This document shows positions 36,528 to 43,278 of a stretch of 64,000 nt of DNA, piece after piece. The translations under genes and the position numbers were made by a program. The notes under the pieces were generated by a model that was given only the letters and a program-made list of their open reading frames with translations, searched no databases and had not been told where the DNA came from. How positions within the stretch are numbered: the stretch's first letter is position 1; each line of letters begins with the position of its first letter. Where the stretch lies: assembly GCF_988243305.1 (NCBI RefSeq), contig NZ_OZ547136.1; one strand, written 5' to 3'.

Positions 36528-38606
36528 ATGTCATATACACCGATGAGTGATCTCGGACAACAAGGGTTGTTCGACATCACTCGGACACTATTGCAGCAGC
36601 CCGATCTGGCCTCGCTGTGTGAGGCTCTTTCGCAACTGGTAAAGCGTTCTGCGCTCGCCGACAACGCGGCTATTGTGTTGTGGCAAGCGCAGACTCAACG
36701 TGCGTCTTATTACGCATCGCGTGAAAAAGACACCCCCATTAAATATGAAGACGAAACTGTTCTGGCACACGGTCCGGTACGCAGCATTTTGTCGCGCCCT
36801 GATACGCTGCATTGCAGTTACGAAGAATTTTGTGAAACCTGGCCGCAGCTGGCCGCAGGTGGGCTATACCCAAAATTTGGTCACTATTGCCTGATGCCAC
36901 TGGCGGCAGAAGGGCATATTTTTGGTGGCTGTGAATTTATTCGTTATGACGATCGCCCCTGGAGCGAAAAAGAGTTCAATCGTCTGCAAACATTTACGCA
37001 GATCGTTTCTGTCGTCACCGAACAAATCCAGAGTCGAGTCGTTAACAATGTTGACTATGAGTTGTTATGCCGGGAACGCGATAACTTCCGCATCCTGGTC
37101 GCCATCACCAACGCGGTGCTTTCCCGCCTGGATATGGACGAACTGGTCAGCGAAGTCGCCAAAGAAATCCATTACTATTTCGACATTGACGATATCAGCA
37201 TTGTCTTACGCAGCCACCGTAAAAACAAACTCAACATCTACTCCACTCACTATCTTGATAAACAACATCCCGCCCACGAACAGAGCGAAGTCGATGAAGC
37301 CGGAACCCTCACCGAACGCGTGTTCAAAAGCAAAGAGATGCTGCTGATTAATCTCCACGAGCGGGACGATTTAGCCCCCTATGAACGCATGTTGTTCGAC
37401 ACCTGGGGCAACCAGATTCAAACCTTGTGCCTGTTACCGCTGATGTCTGGCGATACCATGCTGGGCGTGCTGAAACTGGCGCAATGCGAAGAGAAAGTGT
37501 TTACCACTACCAATTTGAATTTACTGCGCCAGATTGCCGAACGTGTGGCAATCGCTGTCGATAACGCCCTCGCCTATCAGGAAATCCATCGTCTGAAAGA
37601 ACGGCTGGTTGATGAAAACCTCGCCCTGACCGAGCAGCTCAACAATGTTGATAGTGAATTTGGCGAGATTATTGGCCGCAGCGAAGCCATGTACAGCGTA
37701 CTTAAACAAGTTGAAATGGTGGCGCAAAGTGACAGTACTGTTCTGATCCTCGGTGAAACTGGTACAGGTAAAGAGCTGATTGCCCGCGCGATCCATAATC
37801 TCAGTGGGCGTAATAATCGCCGCATGGTCAAAATGAACTGCGCGGCGATGCCTGCCGGATTGCTGGAGAGCGATCTGTTTGGTCATGAGCGTGGGGCTTT
37901 TACCGGTGCCAGCGCCCAGCGTATCGGTCGTTTTGAACTGGCGGATAAAAGCTCCCTGTTCCTCGACGAAGTGGGCGATATGCCACTGGAGTTACAGCCG
38001 AAGTTGCTGCGTGTATTACAGGAACAGGAGTTTGAACGTCTCGGCAGCAACAAAATCATTCAGACGGACGTGCGTCTAATCGCCGCAACTAACCGCGATC
38101 TGAAAAAAATGGTCGCCGACCGAGAGTTCCGTAGCGATCTCTATTACCGCCTGAACGTATTCCCGATCCACCTGCCGCCACTACGCGAGCGTCCGGAAGA
38201 TATTCCGCTGCTGGCGAAAGCCTTTACCTTCAAAATTGCCCGTCGTCTGGGGCGTAATATCGACAGCATTCCTGCCGAGACGCTGCGCACCTTGAGCAAC
38301 ATGGAGTGGCCGGGTAACGTACGCGAACTGGAAAACGTCATTGAGCGCGCAGTATTGCTGACACGCGGCAACGTGCTGCAGCTGTCATTGCCAGATATTG
38401 TTTTACCGGAACCAGAAACGCCGCCTGCCGCAACAGTTGTCGCTCAGGAGGGCGAAGATGAATATCAGTTGATTGTTCGCGTGCTGAAAGAAACTAACGG
38501 CGTGGTTGCCGGGCCTAAAGGCGCTGCGCAACGTCTGGGGCTGAAACGCACGACCCTGCTGTCACGGATGAAGCGGCTTGGAATTGATAAATCGGCATTG
38601 ATTTAA
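36528..38606 (+). CDS. fhlA: Formate hydrogenlyase transcriptional activator FhlA (sigma-54 dependent)
   Basis: Start trimmed to MSYTPMSDLGQQGLFDITR; two GAF regions, AAA+ domain ([14 protein letters not shown]) and C-terminal HTH. Confidence 0.96.
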   Translation: MSYTPMSDLGQQGLFDITRTLLQQPDLASLCEALSQLVKRSALADNAAIVLWQAQTQRASYYASREKDTPIKYEDETVLAHGPVRSILSRPDTLHCSYEEFCETWPQLAAGGLYPKFGHYCLMPLAAEGHIFGGCEFIRYDDRPWSEKEFNRLQTFTQIVSVVTEQIQSRVVNNVDYELLCRERDNFRILVAITNAVLSRLDMDELVSEVAKEIHYYFDIDDISIVLRSHRKNKLNIYSTHYLDKQHPAHEQSEVDEAGTLTERVFKSKEMLLINLHERDDLAPYERMLFDTWGNQIQTLCLLPLMSGDTMLGVLKLAQCEEKVFTTTNLNLLRQIAERVAIAVDNALAYQEIHRLKERLVDENLALTEQLNNVDSEFGEIIGRSEAMYSVLKQVEMVAQSDSTVLILGETGTGKELIARAIHNLSGRNNRRMVKMNCAAMPAGLLESDLFGHERGAFTGASAQRIGRFELADKSSLFLDEVGDMPLELQPKLLRVLQEQEFERLGSNKIIQTDVRLIAATNRDLKKMVADREFRSDLYYRLNVFPIHLPPLRERPEDIPLLAKAFTFKIARRLGRNIDSIPAETLRTLSNMEWPGNVRELENVIERAVLLTRGNVLQLSLPDIVLPEPETPPAATVVAQEGEDEYQLIVRVLKETNGVVAGPKGAAQRLGLKRTTLLSRMKRLGIDKSALI

Positions 38607-38650
38607 CAGATGTGGTTATACTCGATCAACATTCAATGAAAGGAGGCAGT

Positions 38651-39079
38651 ATGGCAGTTTCAGCAAGAAATCAATTAACCGGAACGGTTAGCGCAGTAGC
38701 AATGGGCGCTGTGAATGATGAAGTAGAACTGACGCTGGCAGGTGGTGCAAAACTGGTGGCAATTGTGACTCACAGCAGCCAGCAGGCTCTTGGTCTGGCA
38801 AAAGGGAAAGAAGCGATTGCCCTGATTAAAGCCCCGTGGGTCACGCTGGCAACGGAAGACTGTGGACTGAAATTCTCTGCTCGCAACCAATTTGCTGGCA
38901 GCGTGTCGACAATCACCGAAGGCGCAGTGAACGCCACTGTCCATATCAAAACGGATGCGGGTTTTGAAATTGTGGCAGTGGTAACAAATGAAAGTCAGGA
39001 TGAAATGAAACTCACCACTGGCTCGCGCGTTATTGCATTGATCAAAGCATCAGCCATCCTGATTGCCACCAAAGCGTAA
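38651..39079 (+). CDS. Tandem TOBE-domain (di-Mop) molybdate/tungstate-binding-like protein
   Basis: About 142 aa from MAVSARNQL, preceded by AGGAGG. Two internal repeats of about 70 aa (SARNQLTGTVS...AIALIKAPWVTLA and SARNQFAGSVS...VIALIKASAILIA) match the Mop/TOBE fold signature. Confidence 0.75.
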   Translation: MAVSARNQLTGTVSAVAMGAVNDEVELTLAGGAKLVAIVTHSSQQALGLAKGKEAIALIKAPWVTLATEDCGLKFSARNQFAGSVSTITEGAVNATVHIKTDAGFEIVAVVTNESQDEMKLTTGSRVIALIKASAILIATKA

Positions 39080-39090
39080 GCGCCTTATTT

Positions 39091-39127
39091 GCCGGAGAGT
39101 ATGGCTCTCCGGCAGATTTATTTCTTT
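39091..39127 (+). terminator. Hairpin (GCCGGAGAG ... CTCTCCGGC) plus T-rich tail after the TOBE gene
   Basis: Perfect 9-bp stem followed by TTTATTTCTTT; convergent with the ygbA 3' end. Confidence 0.6.
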
Positions 39128-39462
39128 GGACGATATTTTTCTGGCAACTCCGGCACCGGACGCTTGTCATCGATGAGATGACGCACGGTTAAGATCGGAT
39201 GACGCCACAGCATTCGCGGCCCAGCCCAACGCATAATCTGTTTCATCTCTTCACGCTTTGCAGGCTGGTAACAGTGCACCGGACACTGCTTACAGGCTGG
39301 TTTCTCTTCGCCGAACACACATTTATCCAGCCGCTTTTGCGCGTAAGTAAACAACGCCTCATAATGCTCCGGCTCCGCTGACGCCTGCGGGCATTTCGCT
39401 TGATAAAGATCGATCATTTTTTTAATCGTCAGTTTTTCACGAGAGATACGCTTGCCGGACAT
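39118..39462 (-). CDS. ygbA: YgbA (nitrosative-stress-induced, Cys-rich small protein)
   Basis: 114 aa MSGKRISREKLTIKKMIDLYQAKCPQ... recognised as YgbA. Confidence 0.88.
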   Translation of the reverse strand: MSGKRISREKLTIKKMIDLYQAKCPQASAEPEHYEALFTYAQKRLDKCVFGEEKPACKQCPVHCYQPAKREEMKQIMRWAGPRMLWRHPILTVRHLIDDKRPVPELPEKYRPKK

Positions 39463-39748
39463 GCTGCCTCCATACTCTTAAGGTGTATTTATATTACAAC
39501 TTAATTTGAAAGGGGACTATGGCTCTGAAGGAGGAGGTTTATTCAACCGACGCAATTTTGCGTACCTGCTTCATAAGCATCACGCAAAAGCTGCAAAACA
39601 GCATCTTTCCCGGAATCACCATCAAGAACTCGCCGTTCGCTTCTTCCCCTGAAATGATTAACTCCGGTATCATGTGCGCCTTATGTGATTACAACGAAAA
39701 TAAAAACCATCACACCCCATTTAATATCAGGGAACCGGACATAACCCC

Positions 39749-42310
39749 ATGAGTGCAATAGAAAATTTCGATGCCCATACGCCCATGATGCAGCAGTATC
39801 TCAAGCTGAAAGCCCAGCATCCCGAGATCCTGCTGTTTTACCGGATGGGTGATTTTTATGAACTGTTTTATGACGACGCAAAACGCGCGTCGCAACTGCT
39901 GGATATTTCACTGACCAAACGCGGTGCTTCGGCGGGAGAGCCGATCCCGATGGCGGGGATCCCCTACCATGCGGTGGAAAACTACCTCGCCAAACTGGTG
40001 AATCAGGGCGAGTCCGTTGCCATCTGCGAACAAATTGGCGATCCGGCGACCAGCAAAGGTCCGGTTGAGCGCAAAGTTGTGCGTATCGTTACGCCGGGCA
40101 CCATCAGCGATGAAGCCCTGTTACAAGAGCGCCAGGACAATCTGCTGGCGGCTATCTGGCAGGACAGCAAAGGTTTCGGCTACGCGACGCTGGATATCAG
40201 TTCCGGTCGTTTTCGCCTGAGCGAACCGGCTGACCGGGAAACGATGGCGGCAGAACTGCAACGCACTAATCCGGCGGAACTGCTATATGCAGAAGATTTT
40301 GCTGAAATGTCGTTAATTGAAGGTCGTCGCGGTCTGCGCCGTCGTCCGCTGTGGGAGTTTGAAATCGACACCGCGCGCCAGCAGTTGAATCTGCAATTTG
40401 GCACCCGCGATCTGGTCGGTTTTGGCGTCGAGAACGCGCCGCGCGGACTTTGTGCTGCCGGTTGTCTGTTGCAGTATGCGAAAGATACTCAACGCACGAC
40501 CCTGCCGCATATTCGTTCTATCACCATGGAACGTGAGCAGGACAGCATCATTATGGATGCCGCGACACGTCGTAACCTGGAAATTACTCAGAACCTGGCG
40601 GGCGGTGCGGAAAACACGCTGGCTTCAGTGCTCGACTGCACTGTAACGCCAATGGGTAGTCGTATGCTGAAACGCTGGCTGCATATGCCAGTGCGCGATA
40701 CCCGCGTGTTGCTTGAGCGCCAGCAAACTATTGGCGCATTGCAGGATTTCACCGCCGAGCTACAGCCGGTGCTGCGTCAGGTCGGCGACCTGGAACGTAT
40801 TCTGGCACGTCTGGCTTTACGAACTGCTCGCCCACGCGATCTGGCCCGTATGCGTCACGCTTTCCAGCAACTGCCGGAGCTGCGTGCGCAGTTAGAAAAT
40901 GTCGATAGCGCTCCGGTACAGGCGCTGCGTGAGAAGATGGGTGAGTTTGCCGAACTGCGCGATCTGCTGGAGCGGGCCATTATCGACACACCGCCGGTAC
41001 TGGTGCGCGACGGTGGTGTTATCGCATCGGGCTATAACGAAGAGCTGGATGAGTGGCGCGCGCTGGCTGACGGCGCGACCGATTATCTGGAGCGTCTGGA
41101 AGTCCGCGAGCGTGAACGTACCGGCCTGGACACGCTGAAAGTTGGCTTTAATGCGGTGCACGGCTACTACATTCAGATCAGCCGTGGACAAAGCCATCTG
41201 GCCCCCATCAATTACATGCGTCGCCAGACGCTGAAAAACGCCGAGCGCTACATTATTCCAGAGCTAAAAGAGTACGAAGACAAAGTTCTCACCTCAAAAG
41301 GCAAAGCACTGGCACTGGAAAAACAACTTTATGAAGAGCTGTTCGACCTGCTGTTGCCGCATCTGGAAGCGTTGCAACAGAGCGCGAGCGCGCTGGCGGA
41401 ACTTGATGTGCTGGTTAACCTGGCGGAACGGGCCTATACCCTGAACTACACCTGCCCGACCTTCATTGATAAACCGGGTATTCGCATCACCGAAGGTCGC
41501 CATCCGGTGGTTGAACAGGTACTGAACGAGCCATTTATCGCCAACCCGCTGAACCTGTCGCCGCAGCGTCGCATGTTGATCATTACCGGTCCGAATATGG
41601 GCGGTAAAAGTACCTATATGCGCCAGACCGCACTGATTGCGCTGATGGCCTACATCGGCAGCTATGTACCGGCACAAAAAGTCGAGATTGGACCTATCGA
41701 CCGTATCTTCACCCGCGTAGGGGCAGCGGATGATCTGGCATCCGGGCGTTCAACCTTTATGGTGGAGATGACCGAAACCGCCAATATTCTGCATAACGCC
41801 ACCGAGTACAGTCTGGTACTGATGGATGAGATTGGGCGCGGGACGTCCACTTACGATGGTCTGTCGCTGGCGTGGGCGTGCGCGGAAAATCTGGCGAATA
41901 AGATTAAAGCGTTGACGTTGTTTGCCACCCACTATTTCGAGCTGACCCAGTTACCGGAGAAAATGGAAGGCGTCGCCAACGTGCATCTCGATGCACTGGA
42001 GCACGGCGACACCATTGCCTTTATGCACAGCGTGCAGGATGGCGCGGCGAGCAAAAGCTACGGCCTGGCGGTTGCAGCTCTGGCGGGCGTGCCAAAAGAG
42101 GTTATTAAGCGCGCACGGCAAAAACTGCGTGAGCTGGAAAGCATTTCGCCGAACGCCGCCGCGACACAGGTCGATGGCACGCAGATGTCGCTGCTTTCAG
42201 TGCCGGAAGAAACCTCGCCCGCGGTGGAAGCGCTGGAAAATCTCGACCCGGATTCACTCACTCCGCGCCAGGCGCTGGAGTGGATTTATCGGTTGAAGAG
42301 TCTGGTATAA
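39749..42310 (+). CDS. mutS: DNA mismatch repair protein MutS
   Basis: 853 aa full-length MutS with Walker [10 protein letters not shown]. Confidence 0.98.
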
Positions 42311-42414: not shown

Positions 42415-43278
42415 ATGAGAATAACGATTGCATCAATAATTTTAATAATTAGCGCCACTGCAATAGGCGCCGAAGATACCCCTTCACATTTTGATATTCC
42501 CGAGCAAGTATTAAATAATATTACGAAGGAATCACGAAATAAACTGCAGGATATCATTGCCAAGGCTCAACATGGCGATAAAGCCTCACAAACGGTGATG
42601 GGACTCATATACCTGAATGGTCTATCTGAAAGTCCTTCAGTGAAGGATATAAACAAAGCATTTTATTGGCTCAACCTTGCAGCAAAGCAAAATTATGATG
42701 AAGCTGAATTTTACTTAGGACAGATTTATCATTACGGATATGATAATACGGGGCCTAACTATCGTATTGCGATATACTGGTATGAGAAAGCGGCAGAAAA
42801 AGGGAATGAACAAGCTCAAATAAACTGTGCGAATATTTATCAATTTGGCCCACAGGAATTCCAAAACATTAACAAAGCCAAGTATTGGCTTCAGAAAGCA
42901 GTACAGAAGGACAATCCTATTGCACATGCAAACTTAGGGATTATCGGAATTCAAGAGAATAAGTATGCTGAAGCTATCCCTCACTTAAAAATAGCGGCAG
43001 AAAAGGGTCAGCGACTCGGCCAATATAATTACGGGACACTTTTTTTTAATGGTCAGGGCGTTCCCAAAGATATACGACAGGCTAAATACTGGTTTGAGAA
43101 AGCTGCTACTCAAAACTTACCTATTGCACAAATTACTTTAGGACAAATTTATGCCTGGGGGCTTGATGAAAATGGCATAAATAAAGAAGAAGCGTTGCTC
43201 TGGTTAAATAAAGCCAAAGCCCAAGGTCAATTTACTGATAAACAGATCAACGCCATTATTTCAAAAAAAATAGACTAA
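42415..43278 (+). CDS. Secreted Sel1-like repeat (SLR/TPR-like) protein
   Basis: 287 aa with signal-peptide-like N-terminus MRITIASIILIISATAIGA and at least five Sel1 motifs (e.g. KAFYWLNLAAKQNYDEAEFYLGQIYHYG, IAIYWYEKAAEKGNEQAQINCANIYQFG, QAKYWFEKAATQNLPIAQITLGQIYAWG). Markedly AT-rich compared with the flanks. Confidence 0.8.
   Translation: MRITIASIILIISATAIGAEDTPSHFDIPEQVLNNITKESRNKLQDIIAKAQHGDKASQTVMGLIYLNGLSESPSVKDINKAFYWLNLAAKQNYDEAEFYLGQIYHYGYDNTGPNYRIAIYWYEKAAEKGNEQAQINCANIYQFGPQEFQNINKAKYWLQKAVQKDNPIAHANLGIIGIQENKYAEAIPHLKIAAEKGQRLGQYNYGTLFFNGQGVPKDIRQAKYWFEKAATQNLPIAQITLGQIYAWGLDENGINKEEALLWLNKAKAQGQFTDKQINAIISKKID

Follow-up and report, generated by a model that had tools for sequence, protein, structure and literature searches.

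The closest described relatives of the protein studied here are the Mop-domain proteins Tub, Mop, ModE and ModG. These share one set of ligands for their oxyanions, in which the backbone of A20-V21-N22 lies on a threefold axis, and S4, R6, S40, K60 and A61 lie at subunit interfaces (PMC11980592). One reference of the same paper states in its title that the Azotobacter vinelandii modG gene is under ModE control. Two papers mention an enterobacterial member, both as a polymorphism: Ewers et al. (2014) used c3292 as a PCR marker of length polymorphism between fhlA and mutS (1673 versus 1208 bp; PMC4209514), and Lerminiaux et al. (2020) recorded that some Escherichia have one gene separating fhlA from ygbA, which is labelled “modE” in that paper and is reported for E. 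fergusonii and E. coli IAI39 (PMC7232297). In the literature searched we found no functional study, biochemical or genetic, of the enterobacterial protein. The gene and the polymorphism are already known, and the family is structurally characterised; our additions are the polarity of the polymorphism (ancestral, and deleted in K-12), the assignment to ModG rather than ModE, and the absence of a ModE box.

The gene between fhlA and ygbA

We analyzed a stretch of 64,000 nucleotides of E. coli DNA (the window), in which a 142-aa protein is encoded on the + strand at 38651-39079, from an ATG at 38651 to a TAA at 39077-39079. An AGGAGG lies at 38641-38646, 4 bases 5′ of the ATG. The RefSeq annotation of strain MEI003, whose sequence is 100% identical to the window over the 1001 bases compared, gives this coding sequence as WP_000301062.1, “TOBE domain-containing protein,” and the gene is c3292 of CFT073. 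Other deposited names, spread over thousands of annotated genomes, are “molybdopterin-binding protein,” “transporter” and “molybdenum-pterin-binding protein.” A few GenBank records start the gene at a GTG at 38612, giving 155 aa; we rejected this start because the ATG has both a conserved ribosome-binding site and a conserved N-terminus, MAVSARNQ. The interval is laid out as follows.

36528-38606, + strand: fhlA (formate hydrogenlyase transcriptional activator), the upstream neighbor, from the MEI003 RefSeq annotation mapped to the window and the list of open reading frames
38607-38650, + strand: 44-nt spacer between fhlA and the gene, holding TATACT and the ribosome-binding site AGGAGG
38651-39079, + strand: coding sequence of the predicted ModG-type di-Mop molbindin, from the RefSeq annotation, domain matches and fold model
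38651-38860, + strand: Mop/TOBE repeat 1, aa 1-70, from the best Pfam stretch (aa 4-66) and the ortholog alignment
38867-39076, + strand: Mop/TOBE repeat 2, aa 73-142, from Pfam, TIGR00638, repeat comparison and alignment
39087-39117, + strand: predicted intrinsic-terminator hairpin of 14 pairs (7 G-C), then TTATTTCTTT, abutting the ygbA stop codon
39118-39462, - strand: ygbA (YgbA_NO family), the convergent downstream neighbor, 114 aa

A sequence-only reading of this DNA had described a well-formed gene with an AGGAGG-spaced ATG, 142 codons and its own terminator, made of two TOBE/Mop repeats. We confirmed the position, length, ribosome-binding site and terminator that it gave, and profile searches recovered both repeats.

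Four features of the surroundings deserve record. YgbA has 114 aa in the window and 117 aa in K-12, because the two haplotypes differ up to the last ygbA codons. RefSeq/PGAP labels fhlA “flhA,” or “formate hydrogenlyase transcriptional activator FlhA,” which is easily confused with the flagellar export gene flhA. Between ygbA and mutS, a 44-aa open reading frame on the - strand (39539-39673; hypothetical protein WP_000611937.1) is present both in genomes that carry the ModG-like gene and in K-12-type genomes. Beyond mutS, between it and pphB, a 287-aa open reading frame annotated “tetratricopeptide repeat protein” (42415-43278, + strand) is missing from the K-12 locus, and forms a second small presence/absence polymorphism beside mutS.

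Protein family, fold and ligand residues

Two profile families cover the protein almost end to end. Pfam TOBE (PF03459) matched in two stretches with E=8.8e-35 and 119 bits against a cut-off of 22.3, and NCBIfam TIGR00638 (“molybdenum-pterin binding domain,” Mop) likewise in two, with E=4.1e-42; together the stretches span aa 2-140 of 142, with no further domain. At an offset of 72 residues, 30 of 70 positions are identical between the repeats. The nearest solved protein is ModG (1H9J), found by phmmer at E=5e-33 and collinear over residues 1-140, with 68 of 140 residues identical (49%) and no gaps. An AlphaFold2 monomer model, built from an alignment of 26 sequences, has pLDDT 95.9 and pTM 0.87, and its top Foldseek matches are the three ModG structures 1H9J, 1H9K and 1H9M (TM 0.94-0.95, rmsd 1.3-1.4 Å), followed by the di-Mop part of E. 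coli ModE.

Both repeats carry the residues expected of an oxyanion binder. In repeat 1, the alignment places S4, R6, A20-V21-N22, T40 and K60-A61 at the ligand positions (roles from PMC11980592), and the equivalents in repeat 2 are S76, R78, A92-V93-N94, T112 and K132-A133. In both repeats these residues are conserved in ModG, and they are invariant or nearly so in 24 orthologs. The inter-repeat linker, E-D-C-G-L-K, contains a cysteine (Cys71, 38861-38863) that is conserved in all Enterobacterales orthologs examined, and is missing from A. vinelandii ModG and more distant relatives.

Two other identities offered by profile models were considered and rejected. The model for the ModE regulator matched only at positions 124-261 of its 263, with 88 bits against a cut-off of 369; the models for the ABC-transporter ATPases ModC and WtpC matched only in their last 60-70 profile positions, with 26-49 bits against cut-offs of 285-440. 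Because these matches are confined to the C-terminal TOBE parts and fall far under the cut-offs, the protein has neither the N-terminal winged-helix DNA-binding domain of ModE nor an ABC ATPase domain. Repeat 2 of E. coli ModE, moreover, is without the SARN and KA motifs, both of which are kept in the protein here. Since the DNA-binding domain is absent and the motifs are retained, the label “modE” (PMC7232297) is a misnomer. Judged by homology and modeled fold, the 142-aa protein is a ModG-type molbindin and not a truncated ModE.

Synteny, age and loss in E. coli

We surveyed relatives at one genome per species, finding 49 loci, and scored synteny by tblastn with the HypE, FhlA, YgbA and MutS of the window. 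The order hypE, fhlA, ModG-like gene, ygbA was found in about 40 of the 49 loci and in more than 15 genera, in some with sitABCD before ygbA. With or without sitABCD, we saw this arrangement in E. albertii, a cryptic Escherichia clade and six or more Citrobacter, and in Klebsiella, Raoultella, Kluyvera, Enterobacter, Pluralibacter, Yokenella, Lelliottia and Kosakonia.

The gene has diverged at about the pace of its neighbors. Its dS is 0.36 to E. albertii, 0.23 to the cryptic clade and about 1.0 to Citrobacter. For fhlA, hypE and ygbA the values in these three comparisons are 0.31-0.65, 0.20-0.40 and about 1.0 or more, respectively (ygbA dS is saturated in two of the three loci), so that the gene falls within or close to the spread of the genes around it. 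Its G+C content of 50% is like that of ygbA and close to that of fhlA. Against its orthologs dN/dS is 0.02-0.10, and in 27 of 27 species examined the open reading frame is intact and the ribosome-binding site conserved. The ModG-like gene is old, vertically inherited and under purifying selection.

Within E. coli the gene is dimorphic. It is carried by 1889 of 5426 complete genomes (35%), at 97.3-100% nucleotide identity among the matches listed, and 1889 of the 1892 genomes with any match to the region have it essentially full-length. The allele of the window (at least 99% identity) is common to 184 genomes, including an ST69 strain. A 120-bp probe found the K-12-type junction, from which the gene is missing, in 3505 of the 5426 genomes (at least 97.5% identity among the matches listed). 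Carriers include CFT073, E2348/69 and ST131 (phylogroup B2), an ST69 strain (D) and IAI39 (F), and non-carriers include K-12 (A) and O157:H7/O55:H7 (E), these phylogroup statements resting on named strains among the matches listed rather than on all 5426 genomes. Such a distribution might be read as decay, with the gene a relic that has no current function: two thirds of E. coli can dispense with it, and IS elements occasionally destroy it. The low dN/dS, the intact reading frames with their conserved ribosome-binding sites, and the near absence of partial copies among E. coli genomes with a match all speak against decay, and we regard it as very improbable.

The dimorphism could equally be taken for a recent gain, in which some E. 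coli received an accessory gene between fhlA and ygbA. The sequence-only reading had taken it so. That reading was right that K-12 has no gene at this position, as synteny comparison of K-12-type genomes confirms, but it had the polarity wrong. Absence from K-12 and O157, and presence in only about a third of E. coli genomes, are what an insertion would give, and the stretch from fhlA to mutS is a recognized hot spot of island acquisition (PMC7232297). Yet the gene occupies the same position and orientation in the Escherichia outgroups and in Citrobacter, Klebsiella, Kluyvera, Enterobacter and Kosakonia (and in E. fergusonii, per PMC7232297), its divergence and base composition are unremarkable, and annotation and comparison with K-12 revealed no flanking repeats or mobility genes at the locus. 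On these grounds we rejected a horizontally acquired insertion or genomic islet, which has scarcely any probability left.

The structure of the junction points to loss instead. The K-12 and O157:H7 junctions are identical base for base, beginning at the base immediately 3′ of the fhlA stop codon and reaching into the terminator, whose hairpin is kept. The hairpin directly after fhlA in K-12 and O157 is a diverged homolog of the one that follows the gene elsewhere. The conserved order of fhlA, gene and ygbA, the ordinary divergence and G+C, and the single shared junction that keeps the terminator argue together that K-12 lost the gene. We conclude from these genome comparisons that the arrangement is ancestral in enteric bacteria and that the K-12 lineage lost the gene by one deletion. 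The phylogeny of E. coli is in keeping with this, as one loss in the common ancestor of phylogroups A, B1, C and E would account for the dimorphism.

The junction hairpin has a history of its own. The K-12/O157 hairpin (locus L002, 4208-4243) differs at about a third of positions from that of gene-carrying E. coli (locus L010, 5430-5475; window 39080-39117), including a compensatory change in the stem, but has the 15-mer CCTGTCCGGCATACT in common with the Citrobacter amalonaticus terminator that follows the ortholog there. Together these features suggest an old or recombinant haplotype at a known recombination hot spot.

A few E. coli genomes show independent, IS-mediated damage to the gene. 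In FDAARGOS_1285 (NZ_CP070152.1; locus L054, 2545-3475), an IS1A truncates it after about 46 codons and nlpD comes next, the whole segment from ygbA through mutS to rpoS being missing at the site in the assembly, so that neither mutS nor rpoS is expected at this place in the strain. In E. coli E26 (NZ_CM143883.1; locus L053, 1-3000), IS26, a gene for a GmrSD-domain endonuclease, an IS1 fragment and blaTEM-1 adjoin ygbA, replacing the fhlA side.

Transcription, function and comparison with known molbindins

On the + strand we found no terminator between 38000 and 39087, the first one being that which follows the ModG-like gene, and no consensus sigma-70 promoter was called in 38000-39800. Because the 44-nt spacer is free of terminators and the homologous hairpin stands directly after fhlA in K-12, read-through from fhlA is the simplest inference, and the gene is probably transcribed in this way. 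By eye we noted a -10-like TATACT in the spacer at 38617-38622. Most orthologous loci have an element of the form TATA(C/A)(T/A) about 30 nt before the ribosome-binding site, across genera with saturated synonymous sites, and in some genera this element overlaps the fhlA stop codon; it could be the -10 box of a weak internal promoter.

Control by ModE finds no counterpart at this locus. When we ran the E. coli consensus ATCGNTATATA-N5-7-TATATANCGAT (PMC545781) against the 200 nt upstream of the gene at 29 orthologous loci, we found no ModE operator: best scores over the 29 loci were 10-13 of 20 positions, the same as in random windows. A candidate operator upstream of the gene, with a best match of 12-13 of 20, was no better than random windows and was rejected. 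The neighbors are hypE, fhlA, ygbA and mutS, with no mod, moa or moe gene next to it.

We consider it likely, with good confidence, that the gene encodes a cytoplasmic ModG-type molbindin that buffers or stores molybdate or tungstate, inherited vertically and lost once toward K-12 and O157. A transcript reading through from fhlA, possibly joined by one from a weak promoter that overlaps the last part of fhlA, would end at the terminator after the gene, whose counterpart in K-12 serves fhlA. If the protein behaves like A. vinelandii ModG, it would form a trimer that corresponds to the Mop hexamer. The trimer would have room for as many as eight molybdate (or tungstate) oxyanions, at sites on the threefold axis formed by the A-V-N backbone and at others on domain interfaces formed by S, R, T and K-A; the bound pool would then serve as a buffer or store of molybdate inside the cell, from which molybdoenzymes are supplied. 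A single deletion removed the gene from the E. coli line that gave rise to K-12 and O157. The sequence-only reading had already proposed a part in buffering molybdate or tungstate, for which homology to ModG makes a good case; preference between the two oxyanions cannot be read from sequence.

Position raises the further question of the formate hydrogenlyase (FHL) system. A role in that regulon is plausible from the place of the gene next to fhlA. In one form, the loaded di-Mop protein would be a molybdate-sensing regulatory partner and not a store, interacting with FhlA or ModE and so coupling fdhF, hyc and hyp expression to molybdenum supply. The gene lies directly 3′ of fhlA across its short, terminator-free gap in more than 15 genera, and the di-Mop fold is the module by which ModE senses molybdate. 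A Mop molbindin of Rhodobacter capsulatus interacts with a ModE-like regulator, and hyc expression in K-12 is molybdate-dependent, both of which favor a regulatory partner.

Other evidence weighs against sensing. Both repeats keep the full ModG-like binding set, a storage-type pattern unlike that of ModE, and K-12 regulates FHL normally without the gene. Loci with the gene but no fhlA upstream also occur: the Phytobacter/Kosakonia sp. S29 loci (L035, L040, L047) have no fhlA, and hypE, the ModG-like gene and ygbA stand there in direct succession; in Raoultella sp. (L014) and Enterobacter sp. (L030), PTS/beta-glucosidase-like open reading frames, seen by eye in the translations, replace hyp-fhlA upstream; and in Serratia, Cedecea and Edwardsiella the gene sits in unrelated contexts. 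Because it is retained where fhlA is missing or replaced and in unrelated contexts, its selective value is not strictly tied to FhlA. We therefore judge a sensing partner unlikely. About as doubtful, in our estimate, is that the fhlA-linked ModG homolog is a dedicated molybdate/tungstate buffer or sensor for the FHL branch, acting in FdhH maturation or FhlA-dependent transcription and co-transcribed with fhlA. If such a dedicated role were true, the single loss toward K-12 and O157 (phylogroups A and E among those sampled) would make K-12 an atypical model for the coupling of FHL to molybdenum in enterobacteria. Since about 65% of E. coli, including FHL-proficient K-12, are without the gene, any role is dispensable.

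These findings have modest consequences. E. coli outside K-12/O157-type strains has a stand-alone molbindin, and the K-12 state reflects, on our comparisons, the deletion of an ancient enterobacterial gene. This may bear on how the ExPEC-rich phylogroups (B2, D and F) handle molybdenum and tungsten compared with laboratory strains, and the gene is usable as a simple lineage marker. It otherwise matters little, and nothing here challenges current understanding.

Among known systems, c3292 of CFT073 (WP_000301062.1) is the same gene as that of the window, with nothing different. A. vinelandii ModG (1H9J/1H9K/1H9M) is of the same length class (145 aa versus 142 aa here), and has the same architecture of two Mop domains without any other, the ligand residues being kept in both repeats. 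It differs in context: the gene here follows fhlA in a hyp/FHL neighborhood, is unlinked to mod genes and has no detected ModE box upstream. ModG in Azotobacter is tied to the nitrogenase pathway (PMC11980592), whereas the host here is without nitrogenase. The C-terminal di-Mop of E. coli ModE (1H9R/1H9S, 1O7L, 1B9M) has the same tandem Mop fold (TM about 0.89) at 34-37% identity, on a protein that, unlike the one here, has an N-terminal DNA-binding domain. Mop (Clostridium pasteurianum 1GUG, Sporomusa 1FR3) and Tub, or tungbindin (Eubacterium limosum 9BEB), are single Mop domains, as is each repeat here; Tub is 40% identical to the repeat and superposes at an rmsd of about 1.2 Å, with the same ligand pattern of S4/R6/A20-V21-N22/S40/K60-A61. 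In the protein here, unlike these single-domain ones, two domains are fused in one chain, so that three chains, not six, would be needed for a particle with eight sites.
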